In this document: positions 7,618-36,750 of the stretch, piece after piece
How the letters are laid out: every line of letters begins with the position of its first letter
Numbering within the stretch: position 1 is the first letter of the stretch
From: Vulcanimicrobiota bacterium
GTDB lineage: Bacteria > Vulcanimicrobiota > Vulcanimicrobiia > Vulcanimicrobiales > Vulcanimicrobiaceae
Length of the DNA: 64,000 nucleotides
Direction of reading: 5' to 3'
NCBI GenBank assembly: GCA_963714015.1
Contig: OY970223.1
Location: forward strand, 3,392,001-3,456,000
The notes under the pieces: generated by a model
Databases searched by the model: none
What the model saw: only the letters and a program-made list of their open reading frames with translations
Told to the model about the DNA's origin: nothing
Position numbers and translations under genes: made by a program

Positions 7618-8344
7618 CGCATTCCACTGGGCGGTAACGCTGCTCGTAATTCTGGCCGCGATCGTCGTCGTGGCCGTCGTGATCTTCGCTTCGATGATCT
7701 TTTGGATCGCGAGCCACGGCTTGGACATCGGCGGGCTCCAGCACCAGTTCGTCGGTATGTACGGCGTGGCCGTGCAGTCGGTCGGCGAAATTGCAGCCGT
7801 CATCTTCTTACTGATCGTTCTGCCGCCGCTCGCCAAAACGGATCTGCGCGGCCTAGGATTCCGCGCGATCGAAGGGCGCGACTGGATATACGTCGCCGGC
7901 GCAGTCGTGGCGATGTTCGTGCTGACGACCGGACTTGGTTCCCTTTTGGAAAGCGCGCTCCATGTAAAAGGGAACGAAGAAGCAATACAGTTGTTCCAAA
8001 ACCTGCACGGCATGCAGCGGGCGCTTTTCGCAATCTTCGCGGTCGTCGTCGGACCGCTGGCCGAGGAAATGTTCTACCGCGTTCTGATCTTCAACGCGAT
8101 GCGCAAGTGGTGGGGCCTTGCCACGGGCGCGATAGTAAGCGCGATTCTGTTCGGTCTCTCCCATGCTCAGCCGGGCTCCCTTGCCCTGAACGTCTCGCTC
8201 GTAATCCCGCTGGCCGTCGGCGGCCTTATCCTCTGCTCCGTCTACGCGCGCACGGGCAGCGCTTGGTCCAACATCATCACGCACGGCTGCTTCAACGGCC
8301 TGACGCTGCTCCTGCTCGTCGTGGCGCCGCAAATGGCAAAATAA
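7559..8344 (+). CDS. CPBP/CAAX family intramembrane metalloprotease
   Basis: EEMFYR, FGLSH and HGCFN motifs; several TM helices. Confidence 0.88.
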   Translation: MENNSTSPALQRSRTDFAPNAFHWAVTLLVILAAIVVVAVVIFASMIFWIASHGLDIGGLQHQFVGMYGVAVQSVGEIAAVIFLLIVLPPLAKTDLRGLGFRAIEGRDWIYVAGAVVAMFVLTTGLGSLLESALHVKGNEEAIQLFQNLHGMQRALFAIFAVVVGPLAEEMFYRVLIFNAMRKWWGLATGAIVSAILFGLSHAQPGSLALNVSLVIPLAVGGLILCSVYARTGSAWSNIITHGCFNGLTLLLLVVAPQMAK

Positions 8345-9363
8345 TGCGCATCGCCGTCGATGCGTTCAACCTCGCGGCGGATCGCCGCGGTATGGGACGC
8401 ATCGTGCGGACGAACATCAATGCGCTGCGGCGTTTGCCGAAAGTAGAACTCACGCTGGTGGGGCGCGACGCCCGCGCCGCATCGGAATTGCGCGAGCAGT
8501 TCGGTTTGCAAACGCTGACCCCGCGCGATTTGCGCAGCGCTGCCTTTGATGCCGTGTGGTATCCGTGGAACGGCATGCGCTTCGCGCCGCACGCCCGGTC
8601 AATCGTTACGGTCAACGATCCCTTCGCCTTTACCTATCCCGCTCGCGGTTTCGTCGCGCGCTTTCGCGAACAAGCGCCGATTCGGCGCGCACTGCGCGAG
8701 GCAGATCGCATCTTCACGCTCTCGCAGTGGGGCGCCGGGGAGGTCCAGCGGCTGTTCGCAATAGAGGACGAACGGGTCGTGGTAGCTCCGCCGCCGGTCG
8801 ATCCGTTTTGGCATCCCCTGGAGGCGCCGCGCCGCGCGCCGTACTTCGTTTTCGTCGCGGGGCCCGAACCGCGCAAGAATGCTGCGTTGCTGTTCGATGC
8901 CTTCGAGGCGGAGTTTGCGGACGCAAGCGCTCCACAGCTGGTCGTGGTCGGTAACCTGCGCAGCGAGGACGAGCGGCGTTTCGAAGCGATGCGCGCTGCG
9001 CGCGAGCGCACCCGCCCGAGCGATGAAGAACTGCGCGTGCTTTATTCAGCCGCGCTCGCGGTACTCGTGCCGTCGCTCGCCGAGGGTTACGGCATGCCCG
9101 CGATTGAGGCCATGGCCTGCGGGTCGCCGGTCCTCTCTTCGAACGCGACCGCACTGCCCGAAGCATGCGGCGGCGCGGCGCTGCTGCTCTCGCCGAACGA
9201 TGCGCAGCAATGGCGCTCGGCGATGCGGCGCGTGGCCGAACACGAAAATTTGCGATTAGCGATGCGTCAGGACGGACTGATGCGCGCGGCACGGATCGAT
9301 CCGCTCGGTTGCGCCATTACACTGCTCGCGTGCGTTCGACAATTGCGCGAAGCCGCTCGATGA
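8344..9363 (+). CDS. Glycosyltransferase family 4
   Basis: MRIAVDA, EPRKN, EGYGMPAIEAMACG. Confidence 0.88.
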   Translation: MRIAVDAFNLAADRRGMGRIVRTNINALRRLPKVELTLVGRDARAASELREQFGLQTLTPRDLRSAAFDAVWYPWNGMRFAPHARSIVTVNDPFAFTYPARGFVARFREQAPIRRALREADRIFTLSQWGAGEVQRLFAIEDERVVVAPPPVDPFWHPLEAPRRAPYFVFVAGPEPRKNAALLFDAFEAEFADASAPQLVVVGNLRSEDERRFEAMRAARERTRPSDEELRVLYSAALAVLVPSLAEGYGMPAIEAMACGSPVLSSNATALPEACGGAALLLSPNDAQQWRSAMRRVAEHENLRLAMRQDGLMRAARIDPLGCAITLLACVRQLREAAR

Positions 9364-10390
9364 AGCGTTCCGGCGCGAACGTTTCGGCATGCGCGCGCAG
9401 CTTCGCCGCTTCGTAGCGCGAAGGATCGAACCGCTTCAACGCCTCCGCAAGCGACTCGGCGAGAGGTTCATCGAAGAACTGCCCCGTTTCGCCTTCGACG
9501 ACGGTCTCGAGCGCGCCGCCGCCGCGAAATGCGATCGTCGGGCGCCCCGTTGCCGCAGCCTCGAGCGGAACCAAACCAAAATCTTCCTCGCCCGGAAGGA
9601 TTGCCGCCCGCGCCGTTCCCAGGAGTTCGTTGATCGCCGCATCGTCGATATAGCCGAGCATCGTCGTCGTGGAATCCTTGGCCAACGCGCGCAGCGCAGA
9701 TTCCTCGGGGCCGGTGCCCGCCACGTAAAGCCGCACCCCGGCGAGCTTTGCCGCGCGTATCGCCAGATCGATGCGCTTATACGAAAGCAGTCGCGAGGCA
9801 ATGAAAAAGTGGTCTCCGCCGCCTGGGCCTACGGTAAAGCGATCCACGTCGACCGGGCAATGCAGCACTTCGGCTTCTCGGCCGTAATATTTCTCGATTC
9901 GCCGCGCAACGTTGCATGAGTTCGCGACAAACCGCGTTGGGCGCAGCGCGGCGCGCTTGTCCCACTCGACGAGTCCGGCAACGAGCGGCTTGACGAGCGG
10001 CGTGCGCACGTATTCTTCGTATGCGAAGGCAAAGCGGCTTACCGTATTGATATAACAAACGTGCACGGCTCCCGGAGGAACGATGACGCCTTTGGCCCAT
10101 GCGGTCGTAGAGCTCACTATGGTGTCGTACGCGGACAGGTCGAAAGATTCGAATGCGCGCGGATAGAGCGGCGCCAAATAACGGAAGTACCGGTTCGCTC
10201 CGGGGATCGCCGCAAGATACGACGTTCGGACCCGCGCCGGATCGATCAAATCCGCGACCAGCTCGGCATCGAGCAGCGCGGTGTAGATCGGCGCGTTCGG
10301 ATACGCTTGCGCGATATGCGAAAACACCCGCTCCGCGCCCCCCCGCTGATTCAGATAATCATGGACGAGAGCGACTCGCGGCGCGTTTAT
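9317..10390 (-). CDS. Glycosyltransferase family 4 (mannosyltransferase-like); start probably ATA
   Basis: RVALVHDYLNQRGGAERV in frame upstream of the first GTG; EDFGLVPLEAAATG. Confidence 0.88.
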   Translation of the reverse strand: MNAPRVALVHDYLNQRGGAERVFSHIAQAYPNAPIYTALLDAELVADLIDPARVRTSYLAAIPGANRYFRYLAPLYPRAFESFDLSAYDTIVSSTTAWAKGVIVPPGAVHVCYINTVSRFAFAYEEYVRTPLVKPLVAGLVEWDKRAALRPTRFVANSCNVARRIEKYYGREAEVLHCPVDVDRFTVGPGGGDHFFIASRLLSYKRIDLAIRAAKLAGVRLYVAGTGPEESALRALAKDSTTTMLGYIDDAAINELLGTARAAILPGEEDFGLVPLEAAATGRPTIAFRGGGALETVVEGETGQFFDEPLAESLAEALKRFDPSRYEAAKLRAHAETFAPERFIERLRAIVERTRAV

Positions 10391-23212: not shown

Positions 23213-23721
23213 GCCTTAACTTTTTCCCAGACGCTCTGCGCCGCCTTCGGAAGATGGTCCATCGTCTTGAGGAACAGCGTGATTTGCCAGAGCTGGGTCT
23301 GGTTCAGGCTGTGCCCAAAGGCCGGCATTCCGGTCCAGCGTATCCCGTGGTAGACCTTCCAGTAAGTCACGGCGTCGGGATCGTCCTCGACGCCGTCCTT
23401 GGCCAGCTGCGGAGGATGCTGATAAAGGCCCTTTGCCACGCTGGTTGGGGTGCCGCTTGCGCCGCCGTGACATACCGCGCAGTCGCGCGCGTAGAGTTTC
23501 AGGCCGGCTAACAGGTTGGCATCGCTGGCGGGCAGCGGATCGCTGAGGGACGGGGCGCGCGATAACGTCGCCCCGAGCGACATGCGGGCCGCCCACCGCT
23601 CGATTCGGGGCGGGCGAGCGTCGGCGTTCGCCGGTACCGCGCCGCTGCGCAACGCGGCATACCCGCCGATTGCCAGTACCAGCACGACGAACAGCACGCC
23701 GGCCAAAAATCCTCGAAGCAT
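23209..23721 (-). CDS. Membrane-anchored monoheme cytochrome c
   Basis: N-terminal TM helix, CAVCH, GIRWTGMPAF; SD GAGGAGG. Confidence 0.88.
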   Translation of the reverse strand: MLRGFLAGVLFVVLVLAIGGYAALRSGAVPANADARPPRIERWAARMSLGATLSRAPSLSDPLPASDANLLAGLKLYARDCAVCHGGASGTPTSVAKGLYQHPPQLAKDGVEDDPDAVTYWKVYHGIRWTGMPAFGHSLNQTQLWQITLFLKTMDHLPKAAQSVWEKVKA

Positions 23722-23843
23722 GTATCTCCTCCTCAAGGCGGGTTTGGCACAAGCCTACAAAGTTTTCCTTAAGGTATCCTGGCTTTACGCTAGCGAAACA
23801 GACGGCCGTCCGGCCCGTATATCGGGAAGAAAGAGGGATCCGA

Positions 23844-26492
23844 ATGAAATATCCAGGGTCTGCGGCTGCACTTGTTCTTGGGGCAGCCTTATTGACGACC
23901 GCGGCCGCGGGCGCGTCCTCGCCGTACGCCGCCATAGACGCGGCTCAGGGCGAATTGCCGAAGGACGTGGTGCCCACGTTTTACGCAATCGACGTTGCCC
24001 CCAATCCCAAAACCATGAAGATAGCCGGACACGAACGCATCACAATCGTCGTGCGTAAACCGGCTTCCAGCATCGTTTTGAACGCACTGCAGACGACGTT
24101 CGGCAGAGTGACGCTCGACGGCAAGCCGGCCGTCGTTTCCGTCAACGAGGCGCGCCAGCAAGCGAGGTTTGCATTTCCAAAACCGGTAAGCGCCGGCATT
24201 CACACGCTGGACATTGCATATACTGCGACGCTTCAATCCTCGGCGCAAGGCTTGTTCAAGCAAAACTATTCCGATATGCAGGGTACGCCGGCCTATATGT
24301 ACGGTACGCAGCTCGAGGCAACCGACGGACGCCGCCTGTTCCCGGGATGGGACGAACCGGCGTTCAAAGCGCGGTTTCGCGTGAGCTTCGTCGTTCCCAA
24401 GGAGTGGACGGCAATCTCGAACACGCCGATAGTTTCGCAAAGTCCCGTCGGCAGCGACGGCAAACGCGTCCAATTCGACACGACGCCGAAGATGTCGACC
24501 TACCTCGTGGTGTTGTGCGCCGGCGATTTTCAGCAGATCAGCACGACGGCCGACGGCATCAAGCTCTCGGTGTACGCGACCCGCGGCAAGATGGACGAAG
24601 CGAAGTACGCGTTGAGCGTCATGAAGGATCTGATGCCGTACTACGATTCCTACTACGGCGTGAAATTTCCGATTTCCAAGCTCGACACGATCGCCATTCC
24701 GGGCGGCTTTCTCGGAGCTATGGAAAACTGGGGAGGCATCACGTACAACGAGGGCACGATTCTCTTCGATCCGAAATTGCAGCCTCAGTCCGATGAAAAG
24801 AGCATCTTCGGCATCATCGCGCACGAGGAGTCGCACCAATGGAACGGCGACCTGACGACGTTCGCGTGGTGGGATGACGTTTGGATCGCGGAAGGCTTTG
24901 CCACCTGGATGGAGACGAAAGCTCCCGATCACTTTCATCCCGAATGGCACATGTACATCGGCGCCGACAACGACGTGCAAGGCGCTATGGCGCGCGACGC
25001 GCAGATCACCACGCACCCCGTGTACGTTCCGGTGCACAACGAAACCGAAGCAGCAGCGGTCTTCGACGAAATCTCATACACCAAGGCCGGTTCGGTGCTG
25101 CGCATGCTCGAGCAGTACATCGGCCCCGGCAAATTCCAAGCAGCGCTGCAGCAGTATTTCCGAACCCATGAGTACACTTCGTTCAGCGCGAAGGACCTGT
25201 GGGCCGATTTGGGCGCCCAAAGCGGACAAAACATCGCACAGGCCGTCCACAATTGGATTTACCAGCCGGGATTTCCGGTCGTAGCGGCGAGCGCTTCGTG
25301 CAGCAACGGGCATCGAACCATCGCCCTCTCGCAGCAGCGATATCTGAACGACGCCGCGCTGCCGGCGGGTTCGACGGTTTGGACGATTCCGCTGAACGTT
25401 AAGACCGACGCAACCTCTTCCGCGACGCAGCCGGTACTCTTCAACACGCGCACGGCGACTATCGACGGCGGTTCCTGCGATAAGCCGTTCGTTCTGAACG
25501 GCGACGCCGTCGGTTACTACAGGACCGAGTACGACCCGCAGACCCAAGCTGCGCAGCAAGCCGCCTTCCTGAAGCTCTCGACGGCGGATAAGCTCGCGCT
25601 TCTTCACGATGCGCGAGCATTCGCCTCATCGGGCCGTTCGAAGATCGACGAATATCTCGCATATGCCAAAGCGGACAGCGGCGACGCGGATCCGCTTGTC
25701 GCCGGCGACGTGCTCGGTCAGTACAACGCGATGCTGACCTTCGAAAAAGGCAAGCCGGGCGAAGCCAAACTCAAACAATACGTCGCCGCTCAAGTCAAAC
25801 CGATGCTGCCGCAATTCGGAGGTTGGGACGGCACCGGCATGAACGACGACCAGCTGGGCGTCCGGAACACCATTCTGTTCCTGCTCGCGCAATGCGGCGA
25901 CCAGCCGACTATTGCAGAAGCAAAGCGCCGCTTTGCGATCGTCTTGCAGAATCCGCAAGCCTATCCGCCGCTCACCAAACAGGCCGTCATGGGTATCGCC
26001 GGCTACGCAGCGGATCCGGCGATCTATCAGCAACTGCTGGGAATGGCACTGAAAGCGACGAATCCGACCGAGCAGCAGAACGACTTTTTCGCGCTGTTCG
26101 GCGCTAACGATCCGGCCCTGGCCATGCAGAGTTTGAACATGTCGCTGCATTTGCCGCCGCAGTTCGCGCCTTTTGCTCCCTACATCGTAGGAGCGGTAGC
26201 GCAGCAGCATCCGCAAGAGAGTTGGAAATTCCTAAGCGACAACTCGGACAAGCTCTTTAGTTCGATGTCCTCGTTCGAAAGAGTGGCTGCCGTCTCGCAA
26301 GTGGCCGGGCAGTTCGCGACGCTGATCCCGGCGGATCAGATCCAGGCCTACCTGAACTCGCACGTTCCGGCCGACGCAGCGAACGAAATCAAGAAGACGA
26401 TGGACGACGTCCATACGCGGCAGGCCGTCGAAGATCGGCTCCTTCCGCAAATAGACGCCTACGTCGGTTCGCAATTCCTGACGAAGAGTTAG
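23844..26492 (+). CDS. pepN: Secreted M1 aminopeptidase (PepN/ERAP1-like)
   Basis: Signal peptide, GAMENWG, HEESH...E, YTKAG. Confidence 0.92.
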   Translation: MKYPGSAAALVLGAALLTTAAAGASSPYAAIDAAQGELPKDVVPTFYAIDVAPNPKTMKIAGHERITIVVRKPASSIVLNALQTTFGRVTLDGKPAVVSVNEARQQARFAFPKPVSAGIHTLDIAYTATLQSSAQGLFKQNYSDMQGTPAYMYGTQLEATDGRRLFPGWDEPAFKARFRVSFVVPKEWTAISNTPIVSQSPVGSDGKRVQFDTTPKMSTYLVVLCAGDFQQISTTADGIKLSVYATRGKMDEAKYALSVMKDLMPYYDSYYGVKFPISKLDTIAIPGGFLGAMENWGGITYNEGTILFDPKLQPQSDEKSIFGIIAHEESHQWNGDLTTFAWWDDVWIAEGFATWMETKAPDHFHPEWHMYIGADNDVQGAMARDAQITTHPVYVPVHNETEAAAVFDEISYTKAGSVLRMLEQYIGPGKFQAALQQYFRTHEYTSFSAKDLWADLGAQSGQNIAQAVHNWIYQPGFPVVAASASCSNGHRTIALSQQRYLNDAALPAGSTVWTIPLNVKTDATSSATQPVLFNTRTATIDGGSCDKPFVLNGDAVGYYRTEYDPQTQAAQQAAFLKLSTADKLALLHDARAFASSGRSKIDEYLAYAKADSGDADPLVAGDVLGQYNAMLTFEKGKPGEAKLKQYVAAQVKPMLPQFGGWDGTGMNDDQLGVRNTILFLLAQCGDQPTIAEAKRRFAIVLQNPQAYPPLTKQAVMGIAGYAADPAIYQQLLGMALKATNPTEQQNDFFALFGANDPALAMQSLNMSLHLPPQFAPFAPYIVGAVAQQHPQESWKFLSDNSDKLFSSMSSFERVAAVSQVAGQFATLIPADQIQAYLNSHVPADAANEIKKTMDDVHTRQAVEDRLLPQIDAYVGSQFLTKS

Positions 26493-26500
26493 CACGGTGG

Positions 26501-26536
26501 AATAAAAACGGACGCCTCGCGGCGTCCGTTTTTATT
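26501..26536. terminator. Bidirectional intrinsic terminator
   Basis: AATAAAAACGGACGCC-TCGC-GGCGTCCGTTTTTATT between convergent genes. Confidence 0.85.
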
Positions 26537-28677
26537 ATTGGGCTTTGGCGGCGTGCAGGGCGACGACGCGCTGGCTCGGCGCCTGGCGCCCGTTGTGAAG
26601 GCGGACGAAGTCGAGCAGCGCCGGATACGTCACCGGCCGGCTGAAGAAATACCCCTGCGCCTGATCGCAATGCAGGCGCACGAAGTCGTTTTGCGCCTCG
26701 TATTCGATGCCTTCGGCGATGATGCGCAGGCCGAGCGTCTGTCCCAGGGTCGAAATCGTTTTGACGATTCCTTGATCGTACGAGTCGCGGACGATGTCGT
26801 CGATGAAGCCTTTGTCGATCTTCACCGCGCTCACCGGCAACCGCTTGATGTAGCCCAGCGAGCTGTAGCCGGTGCCGAAGTCGTCGACGACGATCCCGAT
26901 GCCGCGGCCGCTCAGCCGCCGCAGCGCGGCGATTGCGAGTTCGTTCACCATGACGCTCTCGGTGATCTCGATGTCCAGGGCGGTCGGCGGCAAGCCCGTC
27001 TCGCTGAGAATGCCGAACAGCGTCGGAATGAAGTTCGGATCGTAAAGGTCCTTCGTCGAGAGATTAACCGCGATTCGGAAGTCCGGTACTTCGGTCGCCC
27101 GGATTCGCGCCGCGGTACGGCATGCTTCGCGCAGCACCCAGCGGCTCAGATCGACGATGATGCCGGTCTCCTCCGCAATAGGGATGAACACTTGCGGCAA
27201 GAGTTCGCCGAGCATCGGGTGACGCCAGCGCAGGAGCGCCTCCGCTGCGACCACTGCTCGCGTCTGCAGATCGACGATCGGCTGGAAGAGCAGATGCAGC
27301 TCGTCGCGCGAAAGCGCTTGGCGCAGATCCTGCTCGAGACCGAGACGCTCGAGCACGTGCGCTCTCGTCGCGCCGTCGAAAAGCCGCGCGGTATTTCCGC
27401 CCGCCTCTTTCGAACGGTACATCGCCTGATCCGCGAACGCGATCAGGTCGTCGGCGCTTTGCGCGTCTTGCGGGAACATGCACCCGCCGACGCTGGCGCT
27501 GACGAACAGATCGCGTCCTGCGATACTGAAGGGCTCGCGGAAAGCATCGATCACCTCGGAAGCCAACGAGGTGGCGTTGCGTTTCTGCGCGAGCCCTCCC
27601 ATGACGACGACGAATTCGTCGCCGCCGGGCCGGAATATCACCGACCGATCGTCCAACAAACTGTTGAGACGGTGCGCGATAGCCTTTAACAGCTCGTCGC
27701 CGCTGCGGTGCCCGAGCGTGTCGTTGATTGTCTTGAAGCGATCGACGTCCACGAACAAAACCGCGAGCGATTCGCTCTTCATCCCCGCTTCCTCAATCAT
27801 GGCCGGAAGGCGCTCGCCCAGGGCCAAGCGATTGGGGAGCGAGGTTAGCGCGTCCTGGCGCGCAAGGCGCGAGAACCGCTCGGCGTTTTCGCGCATGTCG
27901 GTGACGTCGAGCATGACGCCGATCGCACCGATGACGGCGCCTTGCGGATCGCGCAACGGTTCCACGTCGTTTTGCATCCAGCTAAGCCCGTGCCGCGATT
28001 CGTACCGTACCGTCTCGCCGCCGAAAGCGCGAGCTACCGCTGCCGCGCACGCTTCTTTTTCGGCGTATTCGCCCAGCAGACACTCGAACGGCGCACCCAC
28101 GACTGCATCCTCGACAAGACCGCGGTCGCTCAAACCGGCGCCGGCCACTGACGTAATGCGCATATCCAGGTCGACGGTCCAAATGACCGCCGGAACCTGA
28201 GAAAGCAATACGCGAAACCGTCGTTCGTTCGAGCTCGAGGCGCAGTTCGCCGTGCTTGCTCTCGGTAACGTCGCGCAAGTAAACGAGTACCTCGTCTTGC
28301 GCGGGCTGCACGCGGATTTCCACCCACATATTAGTGGAAGCAAAGAATTGGAGGCGCTCGATCGGGGTGCCGCTGCTCTGCGCGCGCCGCATATCCGGTA
28401 CAAGCTCGCTTGCGAGCGGATCGAAGATGTCCACGATGCGCCGGCCGACCAGGTCGGCGGCGCTGCGCCGAAGCATCTCTTCGGCGCGTTCGTTGACGTG
28501 AGAGAAACGCATTTCGCCGTCGACGATGAAGAATGCGTCAGGAATGCTTTCGAGAAGGCTGTAGCGCTTCTGGACGAGCAGCCGTTTTTCAGCCGCGCTG
28601 CGCGTCCGGATCCATGTGAAGATCGCCGCCGCCAGGACGGCGATCGCGGTAGCGGTTATCGCAAGCGCCGGGTTCAT
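26535..28677 (-). CDS. TM-PAS-PAS-GGDEF-EAL c-di-GMP enzyme; 1-nt frameshift near 28233
   Basis: Two PAS domains; intact GGDEF, EALLRW and DDFGTGYSSL; ATGA overlap with the upstream regulator. Confidence 0.88.
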
Positions 28678-30215
28678 GCGGTCGCCTTGCGCTCCAGCTC
28701 TTTGCGCAGAGCCAGCTGTCCACGCACCCCGAGGGTTTCGTAGACCTCCTCGATTTGCTTCTTCAGCGTGAACTCGCTGCGGCTAAAACGCCGGCAGAGT
28801 TCTTCCATCCCGGCGCCTTCACAAAGGGCCGTTGCCAGTTGAAGCTGGATGTTGCTCAGTTTGCCCAGGGCCGGACTTTGCGCCGGCTCGGGCGGATGTT
28901 GTACCTGCTTGCACAGGGCGCTATTGGGAAACACGAGCGCGTGCGCTTGCGCCATCCGGTTCCACGCATCTTCCTGCGTAAGCTCGTAGAGCGCTTCGGC
29001 CGCAAGCGCAGCGCGAAACTCGTGCTGAATCTGGGAGAAGACTTGGTAGGCCGACTCCAGATTCTTTACCGCCAGGTTCTTGTTTCCGAGTACTGCTTGG
29101 ACGCGTCCTGAGGCAAACTTCTCCAAAGCTTGCGTTCTGCGCTGATGCGAGGCGCCGATCGTCGGATCGACGTTCTGCGTTCCGAGTTGAATATACGTCG
29201 AAACGTAGCGCTGAGCTTGACCCATGTCGAGGGGAGCAAACAGTACCGCGAGCGAGGTCAGCGCGATGCGTTCTTCGCCCATCGTCGCGCCCCATTGCAC
29301 AGTACGCGCCAGATTGTGCGCCTGATAAAGCTCCTCCGTTGCCCACGCTTCGTTGCCCGTCATCCGCGCGACGAAGGCCCGATCGACGTGCGCCATCACC
29401 TTCCAAGCGACGGTCGGGGCGAGGTCTTTGGAGTCCTTGAACAGCCACTGAGCCCGCGCCGATTCACCTTCCAAGAATGCTTGCCATGCGAGAGCGCGCA
29501 CGCACAGGAATTTGTAAGTCTGCAGGTCTGCAGTCCATTCGAGTGCATCGTACAAGCGCTCGCCTTGAGCGACGGCGTCGCGCTCGCCCAGTTCGAACGC
29601 AAGCTCGAGCATAGCATGCAGAGCGACGCTAACCATGGTGAGGTCGCAGCGGTAGCCGTGCTGCTCGAACATCCGCAAAGCAGCCAGCAGTTCGTGCAGC
29701 TGATTGCGGTAATCTTCGACCCCGGCGTACATCCATGCTTGCACGACCTTCGCCGAAAAGCGGACTGCCGGATCTTCAGCGCGCGCCGCGATGTTGAAGT
29801 ACTCGCTCTGCGGCTCGTAGTTCTTCGTCGACCACAGAAGGCGCGAGCGATGCAGCGCGAGGTGCGAGCCGAGCGGATCGTCCGATCCGTTCAGCAGACC
29901 TTCGCCGGCGTCCAGCATTTCCTGCGCGCCGTCGAAGTTTCTGGAGTTCGTATACGCCCTTGCGGAGGCGATGTAGTATCCGAATCTTCCGGCATTGGAA
30001 GTAAAGGCGTCGGAGTGCGCCGCCAGTTCTTGTAATCCCAGAATCGGATCGCGGTAGGTGAGCACTTGCGCCCGCAGCAGCAGGCCCTGTTCACTTTCCG
30101 CTTGCGGCCATTCCTCGCATCCGTTGAGCAGCTCGAGTGCCTCGTCGCGACGTGCGCGCCGGTGGGCTTCGAGTGCGTTCTGCAGATGCTCGGCGGCTTG
30201 TATGCCGGTCATCAT
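28674..30215 (-). CDS. TPR-like helical protein with C-terminal LuxR-type HTH (copy A)
   Basis: Ala/Leu-rich helical repeats; LSNIQLQLATALCEG...SEFTLKKQIEEVYETLGV. Confidence 0.75.
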   Translation of the reverse strand: MMTGIQAAEHLQNALEAHRRARRDEALELLNGCEEWPQAESEQGLLLRAQVLTYRDPILGLQELAAHSDAFTSNAGRFGYYIASARAYTNSRNFDGAQEMLDAGEGLLNGSDDPLGSHLALHRSRLLWSTKNYEPQSEYFNIAARAEDPAVRFSAKVVQAWMYAGVEDYRNQLHELLAALRMFEQHGYRCDLTMVSVALHAMLELAFELGERDAVAQGERLYDALEWTADLQTYKFLCVRALAWQAFLEGESARAQWLFKDSKDLAPTVAWKVMAHVDRAFVARMTGNEAWATEELYQAHNLARTVQWGATMGEERIALTSLAVLFAPLDMGQAQRYVSTYIQLGTQNVDPTIGASHQRRTQALEKFASGRVQAVLGNKNLAVKNLESAYQVFSQIQHEFRAALAAEALYELTQEDAWNRMAQAHALVFPNSALCKQVQHPPEPAQSPALGKLSNIQLQLATALCEGAGMEELCRRFSRSEFTLKKQIEEVYETLGVRGQLALRKELERKATA

Positions 30216-30243
30216 AAGCGTATCCCCTCGATAGACTCAGCGC

Positions 30244-31227
30244 TTAGTCCTGAAGAGTTCCGACGCTGGTGTCTTGTCCGCCGCTAACCACGGCTTGTGG
30301 TCCCTGGACGGATTTCTGCTGTGAGGGTGAAGTCGACGTGAAGCTCAATCCGGCAGCATTCACGTAAGTGTTGTAGACGACCAAACTATACGAACCGGCG
30401 TTCAGCGTATGAATCGAGAAGTTGCCGCCCGCATCGGTGCTTGAGGTGTTGCCGATGGAACCGTCGGCGGCGTAAGCCACGACAACCGCGTTCTGAACCG
30501 GATTCCCGTTCGCATCGTGGATCAGACCGCTGATGGAACCGCAGTCGTCAATCGGCGCGACGAAGAGGGCCGGCTGCGCTATCAGCGTGCCGCTCGAGTT
30601 CAGGTTGAGCGATTCGAACGCGTTGAAGTCTACGCGGACCGCATTGGTGCCGTTTTGCGGAATCGAGAAGGGCTGATTGAGCACGATGGCCACCGTGTTC
30701 GAGTCGATGCTGGCGGTGCTCGTGTTGGAGCCGGCACCGACGCTGCTCAGCGTCAAGTCGTTCGTCTGGAAGTCCAGCGGCATGGACGTGCCGTTGCTGA
30801 AAACTCCGGTGCTGCTCTTGAGGTCCACCACCAGGCGCAGCTGTTGATAGTCGGATCGCAGCGTCTGCCCGTTCGCGACGACTTGACCGCTATTGCCGGG
30901 CTCGTTGAGGACGTTGACGACGTAGGGCGTCGAGAATTGCGCAAGGACTGTGGTCTGCCCGTTGTCGATCGCGTCGACTTCTTTGACGCCGATGTTCAGC
31001 GCGGACATTTGATTGCCGCCCAAGTTCGGAGGCGCGTCGCCCAGAAGCACCCGGAGCAAATCGCTGACCGCCGGACCAATGCCGCCGTACACGCCCTTCG
31101 GAAGCACTGTGTGATGGTGCGGGTCCGAGGCGGGAAGGACCGACCCGACCGATCCGGTTTGATGCGCGCAACCCCCAAGGCCTAGCAGACAAATAGAAAC
31201 TACAGCCGTTGTAAAGAGCTTTTTCAA
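30244..31227 (-). CDS. Lipoprotein with DUF4382-like and carboxypeptidase-regulatory-like domains (copy A)
   Basis: Lipobox LGGC; VLLGDAP, YQQLRL, VDFNA..SL; GSISG...TDAGGNF...LNAGSY. Confidence 0.75.
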   Translation of the reverse strand: MKKLFTTAVVSICLLGLGGCAHQTGSVGSVLPASDPHHHTVLPKGVYGGIGPAVSDLLRVLLGDAPPNLGGNQMSALNIGVKEVDAIDNGQTTVLAQFSTPYVVNVLNEPGNSGQVVANGQTLRSDYQQLRLVVDLKSSTGVFSNGTSMPLDFQTNDLTLSSVGAGSNTSTASIDSNTVAIVLNQPFSIPQNGTNAVRVDFNAFESLNLNSSGTLIAQPALFVAPIDDCGSISGLIHDANGNPVQNAVVVAYAADGSIGNTSSTDAGGNFSIHTLNAGSYSLVVYNTYVNAAGLSFTSTSPSQQKSVQGPQAVVSGGQDTSVGTLQD

Positions 31228-31238
31228 GGTCGTTCCTC

Positions 31239-31344
31239 CCGCGTCACTCTCCCTGGACGCAGCAAAGATGTATTCAATTGTGGTTCGTACACCCGGATTG
31301 CCTAATTATACAGCCGGCAGAAATATGCGCTACAAATCGTTTAC
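31239..31344 (-). promoter_or_regulatory. Cassette A promoter and leader hairpin
   Basis: GTAAACGA-N26-TATAAT and hairpin CTGCGTC/GACGCGG next to the SD; same layout in cassette B. Confidence 0.6.
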
Positions 31345-31407
31345 GCTTCTAAGGCTGAAAACTAGCCAAACTTGGTAAATTTCGCGTTAAACTGCGCATT
31401 GAGTCGG

Positions 31408-32936
31408 CTATCGTACAAGCACTTTGCGCAGTGCCATAGTGCTGCTCACGCCGAACGTTTCGTAGATCGCATCGATCTGCTTCTTGAGCGTGAATTCGCT
31501 GCGGCTAAACCGCCGCGAAAGTTCGTCTATGCCGGCGCCTTCGCACAATGCCATCGCCAGCTGACGCTGCGAATTCGAAAGCTTCGTCATTGTCCCGACT
31601 GCCGCGCCGGCACGGGGCTCAGAGACACCCCGGCAAAGCGCGCTGTTCGGGAAGCTGCGAGCATGCGCAACGGCCATCTCATTCCAGGCGTCGTCTTCAG
31701 TGAGTTCGTACAGCGCCTGGGCTGCGAGCGCCGCGCGGAATTCGTGGTGAATTTGTGAGAAGATCTCGTAGGCCGACTCGAGATGCTTCACCGCGCTGAG
31801 TTTGTTCCCGAGCATTGCCTGAACGCGGCCGGAGGCGTATTTTTCGAGCGCCTGCGTTCGCCGTTGATGCGCGGCGCCCAGCGTCGGGTCGATGCCTTCG
31901 GTTCCCAAACGGATGTACGTGGAGACGTAACGCTGCGCTTGCGCCATTTCGGTGGGCGCGAACATCACTGCCAGCGAGATCAGCGCCATGCGCTCTTCAC
32001 CGATCGTGGCGCCCCACTGCACCGTGCGCGCCAGATTGTGCGCTTGATACACTCTTCGGTCGCCCACGCTTCATTGCCGTTCATTCGCGCCACGTACGCG
32101 CGATCGACGTGGGCCATCACCTTCCAGGCGACCGCCGGAGCGAGATCCTTGGAGTCTTTGAACAGCCACTGAGCGCGCGCAGCGTGGCCTTCCAGGAACG
32201 CTTGCCAGGCCAGGGCGCGTACGCACAAAAATTTGTAGATCTGAAGGTCGGCAGTCCATTCGAACGCGTCGTACAGGGCTTCGCCTTTGGAGACTGCCGC
32301 ACGATCGCCCAGTTCGAAAGCCAGCTCCAGCAGTGCATGCAGCGCGACGCCGACCATTGTGAGATCGCAGCGATAGCCGTCCTGCTCGAACATCCGCAGG
32401 GCGGCGAGCAGTTCGCGAAGCTGCGCGTGGTAATCTTCCAGGCCGGCATACATCCACGACTGGACGACCTTTGCGGAGAATCGAATCGATGGATCGGCAG
32501 CCCGTAAAGCGACGTCGAAAAGACGGTTTTGCGGATCGTAGTTCTTGGTCGACCACAGCAAACGCGCGCGGTTCAGGGCCAGCTGCGATTGCTTCGGATC
32601 GTTCGGGCCGTCCAGAAGCGCCTCGGCAGCTTCGAGCATGTCGCCGGCGCCCTCGAAGTTTCGCGAGTTCGTGTAGGCGCGAGCCGAAGCAATGAAGTAT
32701 CCGAAGCGGCCTTCCGGTGAGCTAAACGCTTCGGAGTGCGCCGCGAGTTCTTGCAAACCCAGAATCGGGTCGCGGTACGTCAGTACCTGCGCTCGCAAGA
32801 GCAATCCTTGCTCGGCGTGCGGATCGGGCCATTCCTCGCACCCGGAGAGGCGCTCTAGCGCTTCATCGCGGCGCGCGCGCCGGTGAGCTTCGAGCGCCGA
32901 CTCCAACAGCTCGGCAGCCTGTATGCCGGTAAACAT
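31408..32936 (-). CDS. TPR-like/LuxR-HTH protein (copy B); 1-nt deletion near 32051
   Basis: Close paralog of 28674-30215; frame break at WATEE(L)YQAH. Confidence 0.75.
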
Positions 32937-32966
32937 CAGCTTTGAATCCCTTAAGAGATCGCGCGC

Positions 32967-33941
32967 TTAGTCCTGAATGTTTCCGGCTTTTGCTTCTTGT
33001 CCGCCTGTAACGGTAACGGACGGTCCGGCGATCACGTTCTGACTCGACGACGAACTGGACTGGAACGTGCGTCCGGTGGCGTTGGTGTAGTTGTTATAGA
33101 CCTGGAGCGTGTACGTTCCCTCAGGAAGCGTCTGCAGTTCGAAGTTCCCGCGAGAATCGGTCGACCCGGTGTTGCCGATGGAACCATCCGCTGCGTAGGC
33201 GACGACGACTGCATTGCTGATGCCGGTTCTCGAATTGCTGCTGTCGACCACGCGCCCGTTGATGGATCCCGATTCGTCGACGGGAGCGACGAACATCGCG
33301 GGGACTGAGACAAGACCGCCTTGCGTCCAGAGATCGAGCGATTCAAAGGCGTTGAAATCGACCCGCACGGCGTTGTGTTCGTCTTGCGGTATCGAGAACG
33401 GCTGGCTGATGACGATGTCGACGGCGCCGTTTCCGTCAGGCGTCGTGGTCGTGGTCGAGCCGGCGCCCACGGTGCTGAACGTCGGCGTATTCGTCAGGAA
33501 GTTGAGCGGCATCGTCGTTCCTCCCTTGAAAACGCCGTCGCTGGCGGCCAGACTTACGACGAGGCGGAGCTGGTCGTACTGCGTTCGCGCGACGTGCGCG
33601 TTCGCGACGAGCTGGCCGTTGTCATCATTGAATTGCAGCACGTTGACGACTAACGGTTTGTCGAACTTGGAAAGGACCGTCGTTTGTCCGTTTTGGATGG
33701 CGTCGACTTCCTCTAGACCCAGATTCAACTTCTCGAGCGTGTGCCCGTACAGATTCGGCGACGCGTCGCCGAGCAAAACCTGCATCGAGGCCGCGCTCGG
33801 GCCTATTCCGCCGTAGACGCCCTGCGGCACGATGTACCGCGAGCCACGGGCTTCGGGAATCGATGATTGACCGGTGTGCGAACACGCGGGCAACACGATT
33901 GCAAAAAGCGAAACCAAAGCCGTTGTAAACAGTCTCTTCAA
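32967..33941 (-). CDS. DUF4382-like lipoprotein (copy B)
   Basis: TTG start after GGAGG; lipobox LPAC; paralog of 30244-31227. Confidence 0.75.
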   Translation of the reverse strand: MKRLFTTALVSLFAIVLPACSHTGQSSIPEARGSRYIVPQGVYGGIGPSAASMQVLLGDASPNLYGHTLEKLNLGLEEVDAIQNGQTTVLSKFDKPLVVNVLQFNDDNGQLVANAHVARTQYDQLRLVVSLAASDGVFKGGTTMPLNFLTNTPTFSTVGAGSTTTTTPDGNGAVDIVISQPFSIPQDEHNAVRVDFNAFESLDLWTQGGLVSVPAMFVAPVDESGSINGRVVDSSNSRTGISNAVVVAYAADGSIGNTGSTDSRGNFELQTLPEGTYTLQVYNNYTNATGRTFQSSSSSSQNVIAGPSVTVTGGQEAKAGNIQD

Positions 33942-33952
33942 CGCCGTTTCCT

Positions 33953-34061
33953 CCGCGCCGCTCTCCCTTGGGCGCAGCATGATACAAGTTTTCTCTAACC
34001 GCGAATTTCGCGATACAAGTAATTATACGGGAGGTTAAGCGTAAGGCCAGGATTCGTTTAC
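33953..34061 (-). promoter_or_regulatory. Cassette B promoter and leader hairpin
   Basis: GTAAACGA-N26-TATAAT; hairpin CTGCGCC/GGCGCGG. Confidence 0.6.
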
Positions 34062-34156
34062 GGTTAATGGACTGTAAACAAGCCGAAACGCGTTAAGTTC
34101 GTGTAAATCAGCGGCAGGCTTTACCGATTCAAAACATTCGAATGGTGCGCAGCCGC

Positions 34157-34180
34157 GACATCTGGACATCTGGACATCTG
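34157..34180. repeat. (GACATCTG)x3 tandem repeat at the tRNA 3' end
   Basis: Read directly from the sequence. Confidence 0.85.
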
Positions 34181-34269
34181 GAGGAGAGGGTGGGATTCGA
34201 ACCCACGGAAGGCTCATCACCTTCTGCGGTTTTCAAGACCGCTGCATTAAACCGCTCTGCCACCTCTCC
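34179..34269 (-). tRNA. tRNA-Ser(TGA)
   Basis: GGAGAGG acceptor stem, anticodon loop CTTGAAA, long variable arm, GGTTCGAATCC, encoded CCA. Confidence 0.97.
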
Positions 34270-34410
34270 ACGCTTCGCAAACCCTCATTTATCGATGTTT
34301 CCCGAATATCGTCCCGAGACCGGAAGGCTCGCTCGCGGCGATTTGGTCACATTTGGTGACGAACGGAGGGGCGCCCTCCATTTGAAACCGAGTCACGTCC
34401 CCTGCAGCGT

Positions 34411-36546
34411 TTACCACGACGACGACGCCGCTGCCCCATTAAGAAGACCTATGGTGTTGCCGGAAACGAACCACATGCGGCAATCGGGGCCTGTTGCAAG
34501 AGCGTCGATCGGCTTTTCCGTTCGGTATGTCACCGGTGTGTGACCGGCTCGAAAGCGAACGACTACGGGTACGCGTTCGCTGACGTAGACACTGCCGTCG
34601 CATGCTGCAGCGACGCCCTGCGCCGAGAGATCGGCATCCGGTAAAGCAAAGCGCTGCGTTACACGGCGGGGTGTTACACGCAACACTTGCATGCGATTCG
34701 AATACCATATGTCAGCGCCGGACGCGGGAAGGAGTATTGGAGCCCCGCCAACGTCGTTGGGCACCGGAGGGACGGAAAAGCGTTTGATGGCTCCCCCCGG
34801 TGTTACTCGGAGCAGCGTATGGTACGCAACTTCCCAAAGCGAGCCGTCACGCGCGCCGGTCAGCGCGAGCGGTTCACCCAGGCCTGCCGGCAATGCAATA
34901 ACGCGCGTGCCGTCGATGCGCGCAACTTGCGGTCTGCTGCCGCCGCGCGCGAACCAAACGTTTCCGCCGGCATCGACCGCGATCTGCAGCGTCTGCACTG
35001 CCACGCCTGACGGCAAAAACCGCTGCGCGCGCTTTACGCCATTGCGTGTCACCGATACGACGACGCCGTCGTTGTTCTCGAACCATAGCGTCCCGCGACG
35101 ATCCTCGAGCAGCTGCAATCCCGTCGTCGCTTTTGTAAGCACCCGGGTGTACGTTAGGCGCCCATTGGCGGATACACGGGTAACGCCCTCATTGCGGCCA
35201 TAGTAATCGCGACCACTCGAGATGATGGCTTCGCCGTTGGGTTCGGGCACGATGCAATCAACACACCATTGCTCCATGATCTCTGCGATGGTGCGCAGAT
35301 GAAGGTAATGCAAAGGTCTTGCAGGTGGTAGATGCAGCCGCACTTCGCGTATGCTCGGTTCGTGGAACAGCAACGCTTCTTCACCATCGCGGTTCTCGCA
35401 AAAAACCGAAATCCAGCCGGTCCAGACCGAAAGGCTCACGGGAGCCGCGCAGTCAATGGCACCAACGCGGCGAGCGCCTTCACGGTCAAACCTCACGAGA
35501 TCGTGGCCAGCCACCGCATAAACGATTCCATGGGAATCCGTGACCATAGCAGCTGGTGGATTTAGCGCAAATGGTCGATACAGAAGGCGATCGGGCAAGC
35601 TGGTGGCAAGGCCGAGCTTACCGGCGCGAGTCGCGAGCATCGCTCCGGAGGGCAGTGAAGCAAGGAAGTTTGTGCCGTCGATTCGCCAGTGCGGCGAGTC
35701 GTTGCGCGCGTCATAACGGTACCAGCGCCCGTTCACTAAAACGTAGGCATATCCGCCATTCACGAGGGCAGAACCGTGAACGCTGGTATTCGGCGAAATG
35801 TTCAGTTGGCGATCGGGAGCAAATTTCGAAGACCAGAGCGTTTTGCCATCCGAAAGGCGAATGGCGCTAATCATCATCGGATCATAGATGTCGGGAGTGT
35901 GTTCCAACCAAGTGCTGTCGACGACTACTCTGTCCCGATCGATTGCGAGGATGCCGTTCGATCCCGTATACCAACGCAGTCGTCCATTGCCTACATCGAA
36001 GGCAAATAGGAACTGCTCAATCGTCGCGCCGTCTTCGGTGACGTGTTGAAGAATCAAGCGGTCGTCATACACCGGAGTTCCCGTAGCGCTTCCGTCCATT
36101 GCAAATGATTGCCACAACTGCTTGCCGGTAGTGAGATCAAATGCCTCGAAGTCGCCCACGCCAGTGCTTCCCAAGAGGATGCCCGCTGCGACGCCTTCGG
36201 GGTTGAACGTTGATGAAACAGTGCGGCGCCACACGACGCGTCCATTGAGTAAATCGTACGCGCCGATATCGCCATGCAACCTGAACACAGCAAAGCCTGA
36301 ACCGCTTTTTACCGGGTCGACGCCCAGATTCGGCAAACGACGCCGGATCGCCGGCCGCAGCGATGTTCCAACAATTGTCAGCGGCGGACCCGTCACTACC
36401 GGCAGCACCCGTCCTTGAGACGTTGATAGGACGGAATGCAAAACATTGGGAGGCGCAACGGCGGTTGTTAGGGACGATGCAACGCGCTGTAGGCATCCCG
36501 TCGTGGCAATGAGGACCGCTGCGACCGCAAGAATCGCCTTTAACAT
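34411..36546 (-). CDS. Lipoprotein with PQQ-like beta-propeller and Vgb-like repeats
   Basis: Lipobox TTGC; AFDLTTGKQLW-type repeats; DAGGNVWF and GPDCRMWF repeats. Confidence 0.7.
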   Translation of the reverse strand: MLKAILAVAAVLIATTGCLQRVASSLTTAVAPPNVLHSVLSTSQGRVLPVVTGPPLTIVGTSLRPAIRRRLPNLGVDPVKSGSGFAVFRLHGDIGAYDLLNGRVVWRRTVSSTFNPEGVAAGILLGSTGVGDFEAFDLTTGKQLWQSFAMDGSATGTPVYDDRLILQHVTEDGATIEQFLFAFDVGNGRLRWYTGSNGILAIDRDRVVVDSTWLEHTPDIYDPMMISAIRLSDGKTLWSSKFAPDRQLNISPNTSVHGSALVNGGYAYVLVNGRWYRYDARNDSPHWRIDGTNFLASLPSGAMLATRAGKLGLATSLPDRLLYRPFALNPPAAMVTDSHGIVYAVAGHDLVRFDREGARRVGAIDCAAPVSLSVWTGWISVFCENRDGEEALLFHEPSIREVRLHLPPARPLHYLHLRTIAEIMEQWCVDCIVPEPNGEAIISSGRDYYGRNEGVTRVSANGRLTYTRVLTKATTGLQLLEDRRGTLWFENNDGVVVSVTRNGVKRAQRFLPSGVAVQTLQIAVDAGGNVWFARGGSRPQVARIDGTRVIALPAGLGEPLALTGARDGSLWEVAYHTLLRVTPGGAIKRFSVPPVPNDVGGAPILLPASGADIWYSNRMQVLRVTPRRVTQRFALPDADLSAQGVAAACDGSVYVSERVPVVVRFRAGHTPVTYRTEKPIDALATGPDCRMWFVSGNTIGLLNGAAASSSW

Positions 36547-36750
36547 TGTGGAAATTGCTCGCAAAAAGAGCGCATTTAACTGCGCGCCTGCCGTAGCGCA
36601 CGCACCGATTCGGCGCGCGTGGTACGCCATAGCATTTGTATCACGGTTTGGTAACGGAATGCGTCACGGCTGGTCCTCGCAAGTCCTAACGCTCCTACAA
36701 TCGAGCGTAAATCGCGGTTTGCGTAGATTCGTTAAGACGGCAGCAAGTGA

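Follow-up and report, generated by a model that had tools for sequence, protein, structure and literature searches.

In the genome of a soil bacterium of the phylum Eremiobacterota (Vulcanimicrobiota), a stretch of 64,000 nucleotides (nt) of contig OY970223.1, referred to here as the window, carries a gene module that joins a lipoprotein, a regulator made of tetratricopeptide repeats (TPR) and, very probably, a C-terminal LuxR-type helix-turn-helix (HTH), and a membrane-anchored enzyme with the GGDEF and EAL domains of cyclic di-GMP (c-di-GMP) metabolism. The only loci in which a TPR-LuxR regulator was seen linked with a GGDEF-EAL enzyme and a DUF4382 lipoprotein are those of Eremiobacterota analysed in this work, and no such module is described in the titles and abstract openings of the literature on tetratricopeptide, LuxR and c-di-GMP regulators. 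To judge by its predicted structure, the regulator corresponds to a MalT-like protein reduced to its sensor and output parts, with the ATPase missing. The account that the results of this work support best, and to which we would give an even chance of being right, is that of an autoregulated one-component regulator driving a surface lipoprotein and a c-di-GMP enzyme. In addition, the tether of the lipoprotein carries a short motif that looks like a specific recognition element.

A conserved lipoprotein, regulator and enzyme operon

All genes of the module lie on the minus strand and are transcribed in the order lipoB, regB, lipoA, regA and the gene of an enzyme with one transmembrane (TM) segment, two PAS domains, GGDEF and EAL. 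The lipoprotein-regulator pair is duplicated in tandem within the window, which is what a first-pass annotation of this DNA had claimed: cassette B consists of lipoB (32967..33941) and regB (31408..32936; split in the assembly, see below), and cassette A of lipoA (30244..31227) and regA (28674..30215), with intergenic gaps of 28-30 nt between lipoprotein and regulator genes in both. The same annotation had cassette A coupled to the enzyme gene (26535..28677) by an ATGA overlap, and the stop of regA and the start of the enzyme gene do overlap in this form at 28677-28674.

A scan of species-representative genomes returned 74 related loci, nearly all labelled Eremiobacterota or Vulcanimicrobiota, with 79 regulator genes. 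A homologous lipoprotein gene lies directly upstream of 61 of the 79, in agreement with the earlier expectation that homologues would be linked to an exported precursor, whilst a GGDEF-EAL gene lies directly downstream of 55, and both neighbours are present in 50. Some of the absent-neighbour calls are spurious because open reading frames (ORFs) were over-extended (L015, L037 and L062 have neighbours by tblastn). Among the 55 regulator genes followed by the enzyme, 48 have [AGT]TGA as their last four bases, so that the stop overlaps a possible start. Neither a protease nor a peptide permease gene belongs to the conserved unit of the related loci.

The unit varies in several ways. Two lipoprotein genes precede a single regulator in L012, L013, L019, L021-L025 and L071, whole lipoprotein-regulator pairs are duplicated in the window, L041, L043, L048, L050 and L065, and L068 has two enzyme genes. 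The first regulator of tandem cassettes has no enzyme of its own, and its stop (CTAA or TTAG) overlaps no start. Sister regulators with 42-44% identity (L057, L060, L061) are found in a different context (NrdR-dUTPase-PanE-chlorite dismutase ... ABC-F), with neither lipoprotein nor enzyme. Four loci (L039, L041, L055, L044) come from metagenome-assembled genomes labelled Acidoferrum, Acidiferrales or Alphaproteobacteria; mis-binning or mislabelling is suggested over transfer, because their sequences sit among Eremiobacterota loci.

The regulator

The AlphaFold2 model of regA, built from 43 homologues, is all-helical (predicted local distance difference test, pLDDT, 90.9; predicted template modelling score 0.85). 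Foldseek matched it to TPR proteins only (132 matches, E≤0.001), and the top match of a structural search against representatives was MalT domain III (1hz4_A; Z 24.4, 327 residues aligned, root-mean-square deviation 5.3), which covers model residues 73-449. The following matches were APPBP2 (Z 20.7), phage Rap (20.1), RapI (19.1), AimR (18.6) and NprR (17.5). The model is TPR-like from residue 4 on and ends in four helices at 455-510; the 513 amino acids (aa) of regA are predicted to form a TPR superhelix (about residues 1-445) and a divergent LuxR/NarL-type HTH (about 455-510). The TPR-like nature of the regulators, on which the first-pass annotation had made its proposal depend, is borne out by these matches. 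Its notion of a 'reversed' receptor of the RRNPP kind, however, stands only in part: the TPR fold is similar to those of Rap, AimR and NprR, but the sensor domain of MalT is closer, and in MalT, too, a LuxR HTH follows it at the C-terminus.

The C-terminal domain is harder to recognize. No Pfam match to a LuxR HTH is found in regA or regB even at E≤10 on their C-terminal 88-90 residues, and regA as a whole matches no Pfam family (E≤0.01), no NCBIfam family and no P-loop family. A search for a Walker A motif in it found none, which agrees with the earlier remark that the regulators have no ATPase domain. A profile of the 43-sequence family, on the other hand, matches the C-terminal domain of NarL (E=0.0012, positions 442-514), and 17 of the 21 PDB matches of the profile at E≤1 are LuxR/NarL-type HTH proteins, judged by their names. 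Weak GerE matches occur in 8 of the 43 members (best E 0.0043). More distant paralogues, 22-28% identical and from the same as well as other genomes, align over the full length and contain a clear GerE domain (30.4-44.1 bits, the cut-off being 23.5); one of them has a weak Pfam TPR_MalT match. Since the NarL profile match, the GerE matches within the family and the clear GerE of full-length-aligning paralogues agree, the C-terminus is very likely a divergent LuxR-type HTH. The description of the regulators as all-helical proteins of about 510 aa with a C-terminal LuxR HTH thus fits regA, whereas regB is split and the HTH is missed by Pfam in both.

Residues W227, W244, G250, D278, R279, W308, E315 and R316 of the regulator core are invariant even in the distant paralogues from unrelated gene contexts, which points to a function of the regulator that does not depend on the lipoprotein. 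A word-based search listed 195 homologues of regA, the named ones from Eremiobacterota (Baltobacteraceae, Rubrimentiphilum, Vulcanimicrobiaceae) and often labelled 'CsgD family' or 'TPR repeat protein' by one source. Outside the phylum, the ESM Atlas clusters nearest to the regulator consist of Actinomycetota GerE proteins with 397-574 aa, a few of which also have TPR_12. The distant paralogue with the weak TPR_MalT match lies in L087 (G000:C1:2688000-2703000; 6902-8407 on the minus and 8736-10265 on the plus strand), beside a serine recombinase gene and possibly on a mobile element.

Promoters and a candidate operator

Both cassettes of the window carry CGTAAACGA 26 nt upstream of TATAATTA in their promoter. 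Read from the sequence, the promoter region of cassette A (31228..31407, minus strand) has TATAAT at 31305-31310, CGTAAACGA at 31337-31345 and a degenerate repeat, TTTAA-N7-TTTAC, at about 31375-31392. That of cassette B (34022..34107, minus strand) has TATAAT at 34022-34027 and, upstream of it, two exact TTTAC-N6-TTAAC direct repeats 29 nt apart (34063-34078 and 34092-34107).

The pattern TTTAC-N6-TT[TGA]AC has 55 matches on both strands of 1.97 Mb of locus sequence, and all of them are on the operon strand. Most (42 of 55) lie 167-358 nt upstream of the lipoprotein Cys codon, typically at 202-240 nt, and the remaining 13 include sites before lipoproteins missed by the lipobox pattern, before lipoprotein-less regulators (L016, L060, L061) and before GGDEF-EAL genes (L068, L080). 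The site upstream of the lipoprotein-less regulators of L060 and L061 has the form TTTAC-N6-TTTAC. The repeat is found 0.028 times per kb in the loci and 0.0014 times per kb in the whole genome: the 3.56-Mb genome of the window has 10 matches where 5 are expected by base composition, and the sole adjacent pair among them is the one upstream of lipoB. The simplest reading of this distribution is that the direct repeat is the regulator's own operator.

Between promoter and lipoprotein gene, most operons have a leader of about 75-90 nt (31228-31300 and 33942-34014, minus strand, in the window; L011-L080 elsewhere) whose single-sequence folds place a GC-rich hairpin immediately before the ribosome-binding site. 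The stems differ between clades (GCGTC...GACGC before lipoA, GCGCC...GGCGC before lipoB), and leader folding has a mean z of -1.3 against mononucleotide shuffles (n=40), with 10 of 40 below -2. RNAalifold found no consensus structure for 26 leaders, because the alignment is too divergent, and an Rfam scan of 26000-35000 (E≤1) returned only the tRNA and two sub-threshold matches overlapping the tRNA, with no riboswitch in the leaders.

Proposed mode of action

Taken together, these features would fit a cytoplasmic one-component regulator with a MalT-domain-III-like TPR sensor and a divergent LuxR/NarL-type HTH as output, which may bind the TTTAC-N6-TT(T/G/A)AC repeats of its own operon much as MalT binds asymmetric direct repeats. 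A putative ligand in the TPR domain would let the regulator set the levels of the lipoprotein and of the c-di-GMP enzyme. The lipoprotein would be exported, its disordered tether leading to two beta-sandwich domains (DUF4382 and a transthyretin/CnaB-like one), and translation of the membrane-anchored PAS-PAS-GGDEF-EAL enzyme would be coupled to that of the regulator. In this way, the making of a surface protein could be tied to c-di-GMP turnover. What suggests that the regulator controls c-di-GMP is its membership of one operon with the enzyme.

Several points weigh against this account. The module is patchily distributed: of 81 genomes sampled from the whole phylum, 4 have the regulator subfamily (E≤1e-80), and these four belong to the family of the window (3 of 23 other members of the family, and 0 of 57 genomes outside it). 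The synteny counts given above overstate the support, because related loci are kin and not independent samples. The promoter of cassette A has only the degenerate version of the repeat, and another factor, or promoter architecture alone, could explain the repeats. DUF4382 has no assigned function, and a full-text search found it named in one paper only, on archaeal glycoproteomics. Lastly, if the breaks in regB and in the enzyme gene are real, the copy of the module in the window would be partly dead.

The c-di-GMP enzyme and its possible hold on the regulator

The TM-PAS-PAS-GGDEF-EAL gene (26535..28677, minus strand) appears in the assembly as two overlapping ORFs, 27982-28677 (TM and PAS) and 26535-28403 (PAS-GGDEF-EAL). 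Pfam recognizes PAS_4 (2.1e-14) in the N-terminal ORF, and PAS_4, GGDEF (5.8e-43, 146.9 bits) and EAL (7.6e-67, 225.6 bits) in the C-terminal one. All domains that the first-pass annotation assigned to this enzyme are therefore present, but the gene is split by one extra base, upstream of the second PAS domain; its homologues are encoded by one ORF. There is a single N-terminal hydrophobic anchor, strongest at residues 5-23. In none of 35 enzyme sequences do the GGDEF, E..L, DDFG, KID, EGxE and QG residues vary, and strong conservation extends to the first PAS domain but not to the membrane anchor or the C-terminal tail. In the translation of the GGDEF domain, RSVI stands at what we take to be the position of the RxxD inhibitory site; since RxxD is absent, EAL would be the only c-di-GMP site of the enzyme.

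This last feature is of importance to a different explanation, in which the regulator is governed by the co-translated enzyme, either by binding c-di-GMP itself or by forming a complex with the GGDEF-EAL protein as a 'trigger enzyme', and the lipoprotein is merely an output. E. coli PdeR, which acts on MlrA, is an example of a trigger enzyme. Stop/start overlap in 48 of 55 operons would agree with it, such coupling being common for proteins made in fixed proportion, as would the intactness of both catalytic domains. LuxR-type regulators linked to c-di-GMP also exist, and two of them, VpsT (E 0.51) and PdeL (E 0.12), are among the weak PDB matches of the regulator profile. However, the first regulator of tandem cassettes lacks both an enzyme of its own and the overlap, subfamily members with neither lipoprotein nor enzyme keep the conserved TPR core, and no known c-di-GMP-binding motif was identified in the regulator. 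The enzyme also changes at a lower rate than the regulator, and its divergence does not follow that of the tether motif described below. We consider control by the enzyme unlikely, and it would in any case be compatible with an autoregulated operon.

The lipoproteins and the motif of their tether

The lipoproteins, as the first reading of this DNA had them, combine DUF4382 (PF14321; 32.6 bits in lipoA and 39.6 in lipoB, with a Pfam cut-off of 25) and CarboxypepD_reg (41.1 and 36.2 bits, cut-off 32.3). Read from the sequence, both have a hydrophobic stretch at residues 4-22 and a lipobox at residues 17-20, LGGC in lipoA and LPAC in lipoB, the Cys of which is invariant in 46 of 46 aligned homologues. 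The genes are paralogues with 54% identity. The longest ORF of lipoB begins with an ATG at 33980, but the TTG at 33941 is more likely the start, since a GGAGGA site precedes it as in lipoA. The AlphaFold2 model of lipoA (46 sequences; pLDDT 86.6) has two beta-sandwich domains, the C-terminal one of which (residues 225-327) is similar in fold (Z about 10-12) to the transthyretin-like and CnaB domains of surface proteins. The adjacent exported products have 324-327 aa and two domains. Behind Cys20 of lipoA, residues 21-52 form a tether in which 21-42, 44-46 and 48-52 fall below pLDDT 50; the tether, including the peptide GVYGGIGP, is predicted to be disordered.

This peptide, which had already been singled out in the first-pass annotation, is indeed peculiar. 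It occupies residues 45-52 of lipoA (31072..31095, minus strand) and residues 41-48 of lipoB counted from the TTG start (33798..33821, minus strand), and it is identical in both although 4 of its 8 codons differ. Across 46 homologues the motif has the form xxx-GG-xxx, with the two glycines (G48 and G49 in lipoA) invariant in all 46, whereas the distance from Cys to GG ranges from 19 to 60 residues, which makes tether length highly variable. It is absent from 6 of 6 stand-alone DUF4382 lipoproteins of the phylum, which have no regulator neighbour within 1.2-1.5 kb and score better in Pfam than lipoA and lipoB do.

The three residues on each side of GG behave differently within and between genomes. 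In 16 within-locus paralogue pairs, 25-69% identical over the folded domains, a mean of 4.81 of the six flank positions match, with at least five matching in 13 pairs; these pairs are kin, with about a dozen distinct motif variants among them. Between-locus pairs of equal identity range (n=1936) match at 1.44 positions on average, at least five matching in 27, and even those above 71% domain identity (n=96) reach a mean of only 2.43. In the nine loci with two lipoprotein genes before one regulator, copies of the same genome match at 5.11 of six positions, against 2.33 and 2.58 for orthologous copies across genomes. This duplication must be old, since upstream copies are 55% identical across genomes and only 42% identical to the downstream copy of their own genome. 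Nor is recent gene conversion the cause of the matching, as identical core motif residues in 14 pairs use different codons in 42 of 101 cases. Selection, on this sequence evidence, keeps the peptide constant inside each genome, although it varies from one genome to the next. Such a pattern, with change between genomes that outpaces that of the folded domains and with matching in old paralogues, is the signature expected of a co-evolving recognition pair; with flanks that diverge between genomes and are held identical within them, the motif would be a specificity element read by a partner that exists in one version per genome. That partner could be the regulator, after processing and uptake of the peptide, an envelope protein, or the lipoproteins themselves.

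The first of these possibilities is the peptide model. A tether fragment with xxx-GG-xxx would be cut outside the cell, imported and bound in the TPR groove, making lipoprotein and regulator a cognate pair of RRNPP type with a C-terminal LuxR HTH; this we regard as quite improbable, and we are just as doubtful of its corollary that the two form a pherotype-like pair in which the tether peptide switches on its own operon, c-di-GMP enzyme included. Even so, none of the outcomes that the first-pass annotation had named as refuting its proposal was observed, and the model is more credible after the motif analysis than before it. Within a tether that is disordered and otherwise hypervariable, the motif forms a short linear element that is conserved, and it is specific to regulator-linked lipoproteins. 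Its flanking residues change rapidly from genome to genome, yet within one genome selection at the amino-acid level keeps them matched. The duplicating unit, too, is often the lipoprotein-regulator pair, and peptide-binding RRNPP receptors are among the good fold matches of the regulator (Z 17.5-20.1). On the other hand, the tether is extracytoplasmic and the regulator cytoplasmic, and the conserved unit offers neither the protease nor the permease that would bridge the two. Regulators of the subfamily without a lipoprotein also exist (L057, L060, L061, L073), paralogous cassettes of one genome share their motif, unlike orthogonal pairs of the Rap-Phr type, and the MalT sensor, the best fold match, binds a sugar and not a peptide.

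With enzyme divergence allowed for, regulator divergence rises by 0.0059 per motif mismatch (p=0.001 in a permutation test that ignores phylogeny), whilst the reverse regression of enzyme divergence on mismatches gives -0.0035 (p=0.97). For instance, L036 and L040 have mismatches at 4 of 6 motif positions, with a divergence of 2.5% in the enzyme and 11.2% in the regulator, whereas L036 and L058, which share the motif, differ by 1.6% and 2.8%. Close regulators differ mainly in alignment columns 120-240. The regression would fit co-evolution and equally a recombination tract over the lipoprotein gene and the adjoining 5′ part of the regulator gene. Column-wise mutual information in 35 triples, moreover, was no higher between motif and regulator (0.398) than between motif and enzyme (0.395) or lipoprotein-domain (0.396) columns. 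In regulator segment 120-224, within-genome pairs with matching motifs are at or above the between-genome expectation (0.76 against 0.66 in the window, 0.96 against 0.92 in L048), and the pair of L041, whose motifs differ, is at 0.73 against 0.77, but with five pairs only this is anecdotal. The membrane anchor of the enzyme was also considered as the partner of the motif but found no support: about three anchor differences, counted by eye, are seen whether or not the motif differs (L036, L058, L040).

Alternatively, the motif may be unrelated to the regulator. It would then be read by a single-version envelope partner (a protease, a sorting or modification enzyme, a surface receptor) or serve the association of lipoproteins with one another, whilst the ligand of the regulator would be some unrelated small molecule, like the maltotriose sensed by MalT. 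Matching of motifs within a genome needs only a shared partner or homotypic contact, the motif is placed within reach of an envelope protein, the core of the regulator is invariant in distant paralogues from unrelated contexts, and the best fold match is a small-molecule sensor. What this explanation does not account for is the confinement of the motif to the regulator-linked subfamily, and the lasting adjacency and joint duplication of the lipoprotein and regulator genes; the conserved unit does not encode any candidate envelope partner either. We see an envelope partner as possible though not probable, and like control by the enzyme it is compatible with the autoregulated operon proposed here.

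The interrupted genes

In the assembly, regB (31408..32936), the paralogue of regA, is split into two ORFs, 31980-32936 (318 aa) and 31408-32067 (219 aa). An alignment of the two regulator genes has a single 1-nt gap in regB, at position 885 (near 32052), which breaks the gene by deletion, and identity to regA continues on both sides of it (80% over residues 1-295 and 73% over 296-509, by tblastn). The extra base of the enzyme gene is at about 28230-28236; over this site homologues keep one frame, ELRL-SA-NERRFR, and by tblastn against the homologues of L011 and L014, the frame switches between ELRL and SSNERRFR.

Both breaks may be true, in which case regB and the GGDEF-EAL gene would be pseudogenes of a module decaying in this genome. 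The single-base indels do interrupt the two genes in the given assembly, and neither site has a long homopolymer. However, the ratio of nonsynonymous to synonymous substitution rates (dN/dS) between regB and regA is 0.10 before the break and 0.13 after it (dS 1.3-1.55), a sign of strong purifying selection on both halves, and the shifted frames remain open. Split genes are also concentrated in 'MFD'-titled loci (at least 6 of 25, many of them megabase contigs, against 1 of 49 others), which fits indel errors, as we presume the 'MFD' project to consist of long-read assemblies prone to them. The window's genome is a single 3.56-Mb contig with a completeness score of only 89.6%. As low dN/dS in both halves of regB, the clustering of split genes and the completeness score all point the same way, these results suggest that both breaks are assembly errors, and decay of the module, though conceivable, is the less probable explanation.

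The only public run with near-identical sequence is a soil metagenome (20% of sampled words), with contigs of 154-305 nt over parts of regA, regB and lipoB; none of its short contigs bridges the sites at 28230-28236 and 32052, and no indels are listed in the parts covered. No RNA run carrying the window sequence is among the public runs listed. A further regulator paralogue of the same genome, in L086 (G000:C1:1311000-1326000; about 6649-8372, minus strand), also appears as several overlapping ORFs and may be a frameshifted gene; its matches are at C1:1318063-1318728 and 1317848-1318024.

Neighbouring genes

Upstream of lipoB there is a tRNA-Ser(UGA) gene (34179-34269, minus strand), directly followed by three tandem copies of CCAGATGT at 34150-34178. 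Beyond the tRNA gene, an ORF of 739 aa (34411-36630, minus strand) encodes PQQ_2 and Vgb_lyase-like beta-propeller repeats with an apparent lipobox, ATTGC, and weak relatives of this protein are found upstream of the module in L043 and L050. On the other side, convergent to the GGDEF-EAL gene, a 940-aa ORF (23670-26492, plus strand) encodes a secreted M1-family aminopeptidase (Peptidase_M1_N, Peptidase_M1, ERAP1_C), which is also the downstream neighbour in L011 (82% identity).

Comparison with known systems

The regulator shares with the MalT/LAL STAND regulators a superhelical TPR-like sensor directly before what is very probably a C-terminal LuxR-type HTH, and its candidate operator consists, like MalT boxes, of asymmetric direct repeats. 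Unlike them, it has no NOD ATPase and no arm domain, TPR beginning at residue 1. The switch that defines STAND proteins is ATP-driven multimerisation (PMC6468293, PMC4381067); such a switch cannot apply to the regulator, because it has no ATPase module.

The RRNPP receptors (Rap, NprR, PlcR, PrgX, AimR) also have a cytoplasmic TPR sensor, and their genes stand beside that of an exported protein with a fast-evolving short motif. Their HTH, however, is N-terminal and of XRE type (or, in Rap, replaced by an N-terminal three-helix bundle), whereas that of the regulator is C-terminal and LuxR-like. Instead of a small propeptide, the exported partner is here a lipoprotein of 320-340 aa with folded domains, and paralogous pairs of one genome share their motif where RRNPP pairs are orthogonal. 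If true, the peptide model would mean peptide quorum- or self-sensing of a new architecture, with the signal embedded in a structural lipoprotein and its specificity diverging between close relatives.

With CsgD and VpsT, which regulate genes of the biofilm matrix, the regulator has in common a very probable LuxR-type HTH linked genetically to c-di-GMP enzymes and a surface protein, but its N-terminus is a 445-residue TPR superhelix and not a receiver-like domain, and the W[FLM][TS]R c-di-GMP motif of these proteins was not identified in it, although no systematic search was made. YfiBNR likewise has the genes of a lipoprotein and of a membrane-bound diguanylate cyclase in one operon. In that system the component between them is periplasmic, as is the sensor domain of the cyclase, whereas here a cytoplasmic DNA-binding protein takes the middle place and the enzyme has an N-terminal anchor only.

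Closest in architecture and size are TPR and LuxR-HTH proteins of about 500 aa from Actinomycetota, and a survey of Gram-positive LuxR homologues names a TPR-like domain among the co-occurring domains (PMC5539150). The subfamily described here is tractable, as it has a fixed gene context, a directly testable candidate operator and a candidate specificity element. To our knowledge, TPR-LuxR regulators without an ATPase are common in genome data and none has been characterised. Eremiobacterota are a widespread soil phylum with very few cultured members, and the reader of the motif, once found, would reveal either that peptide signals reach c-di-GMP control in them by a new route or that their envelope has a form of recognition that is new.

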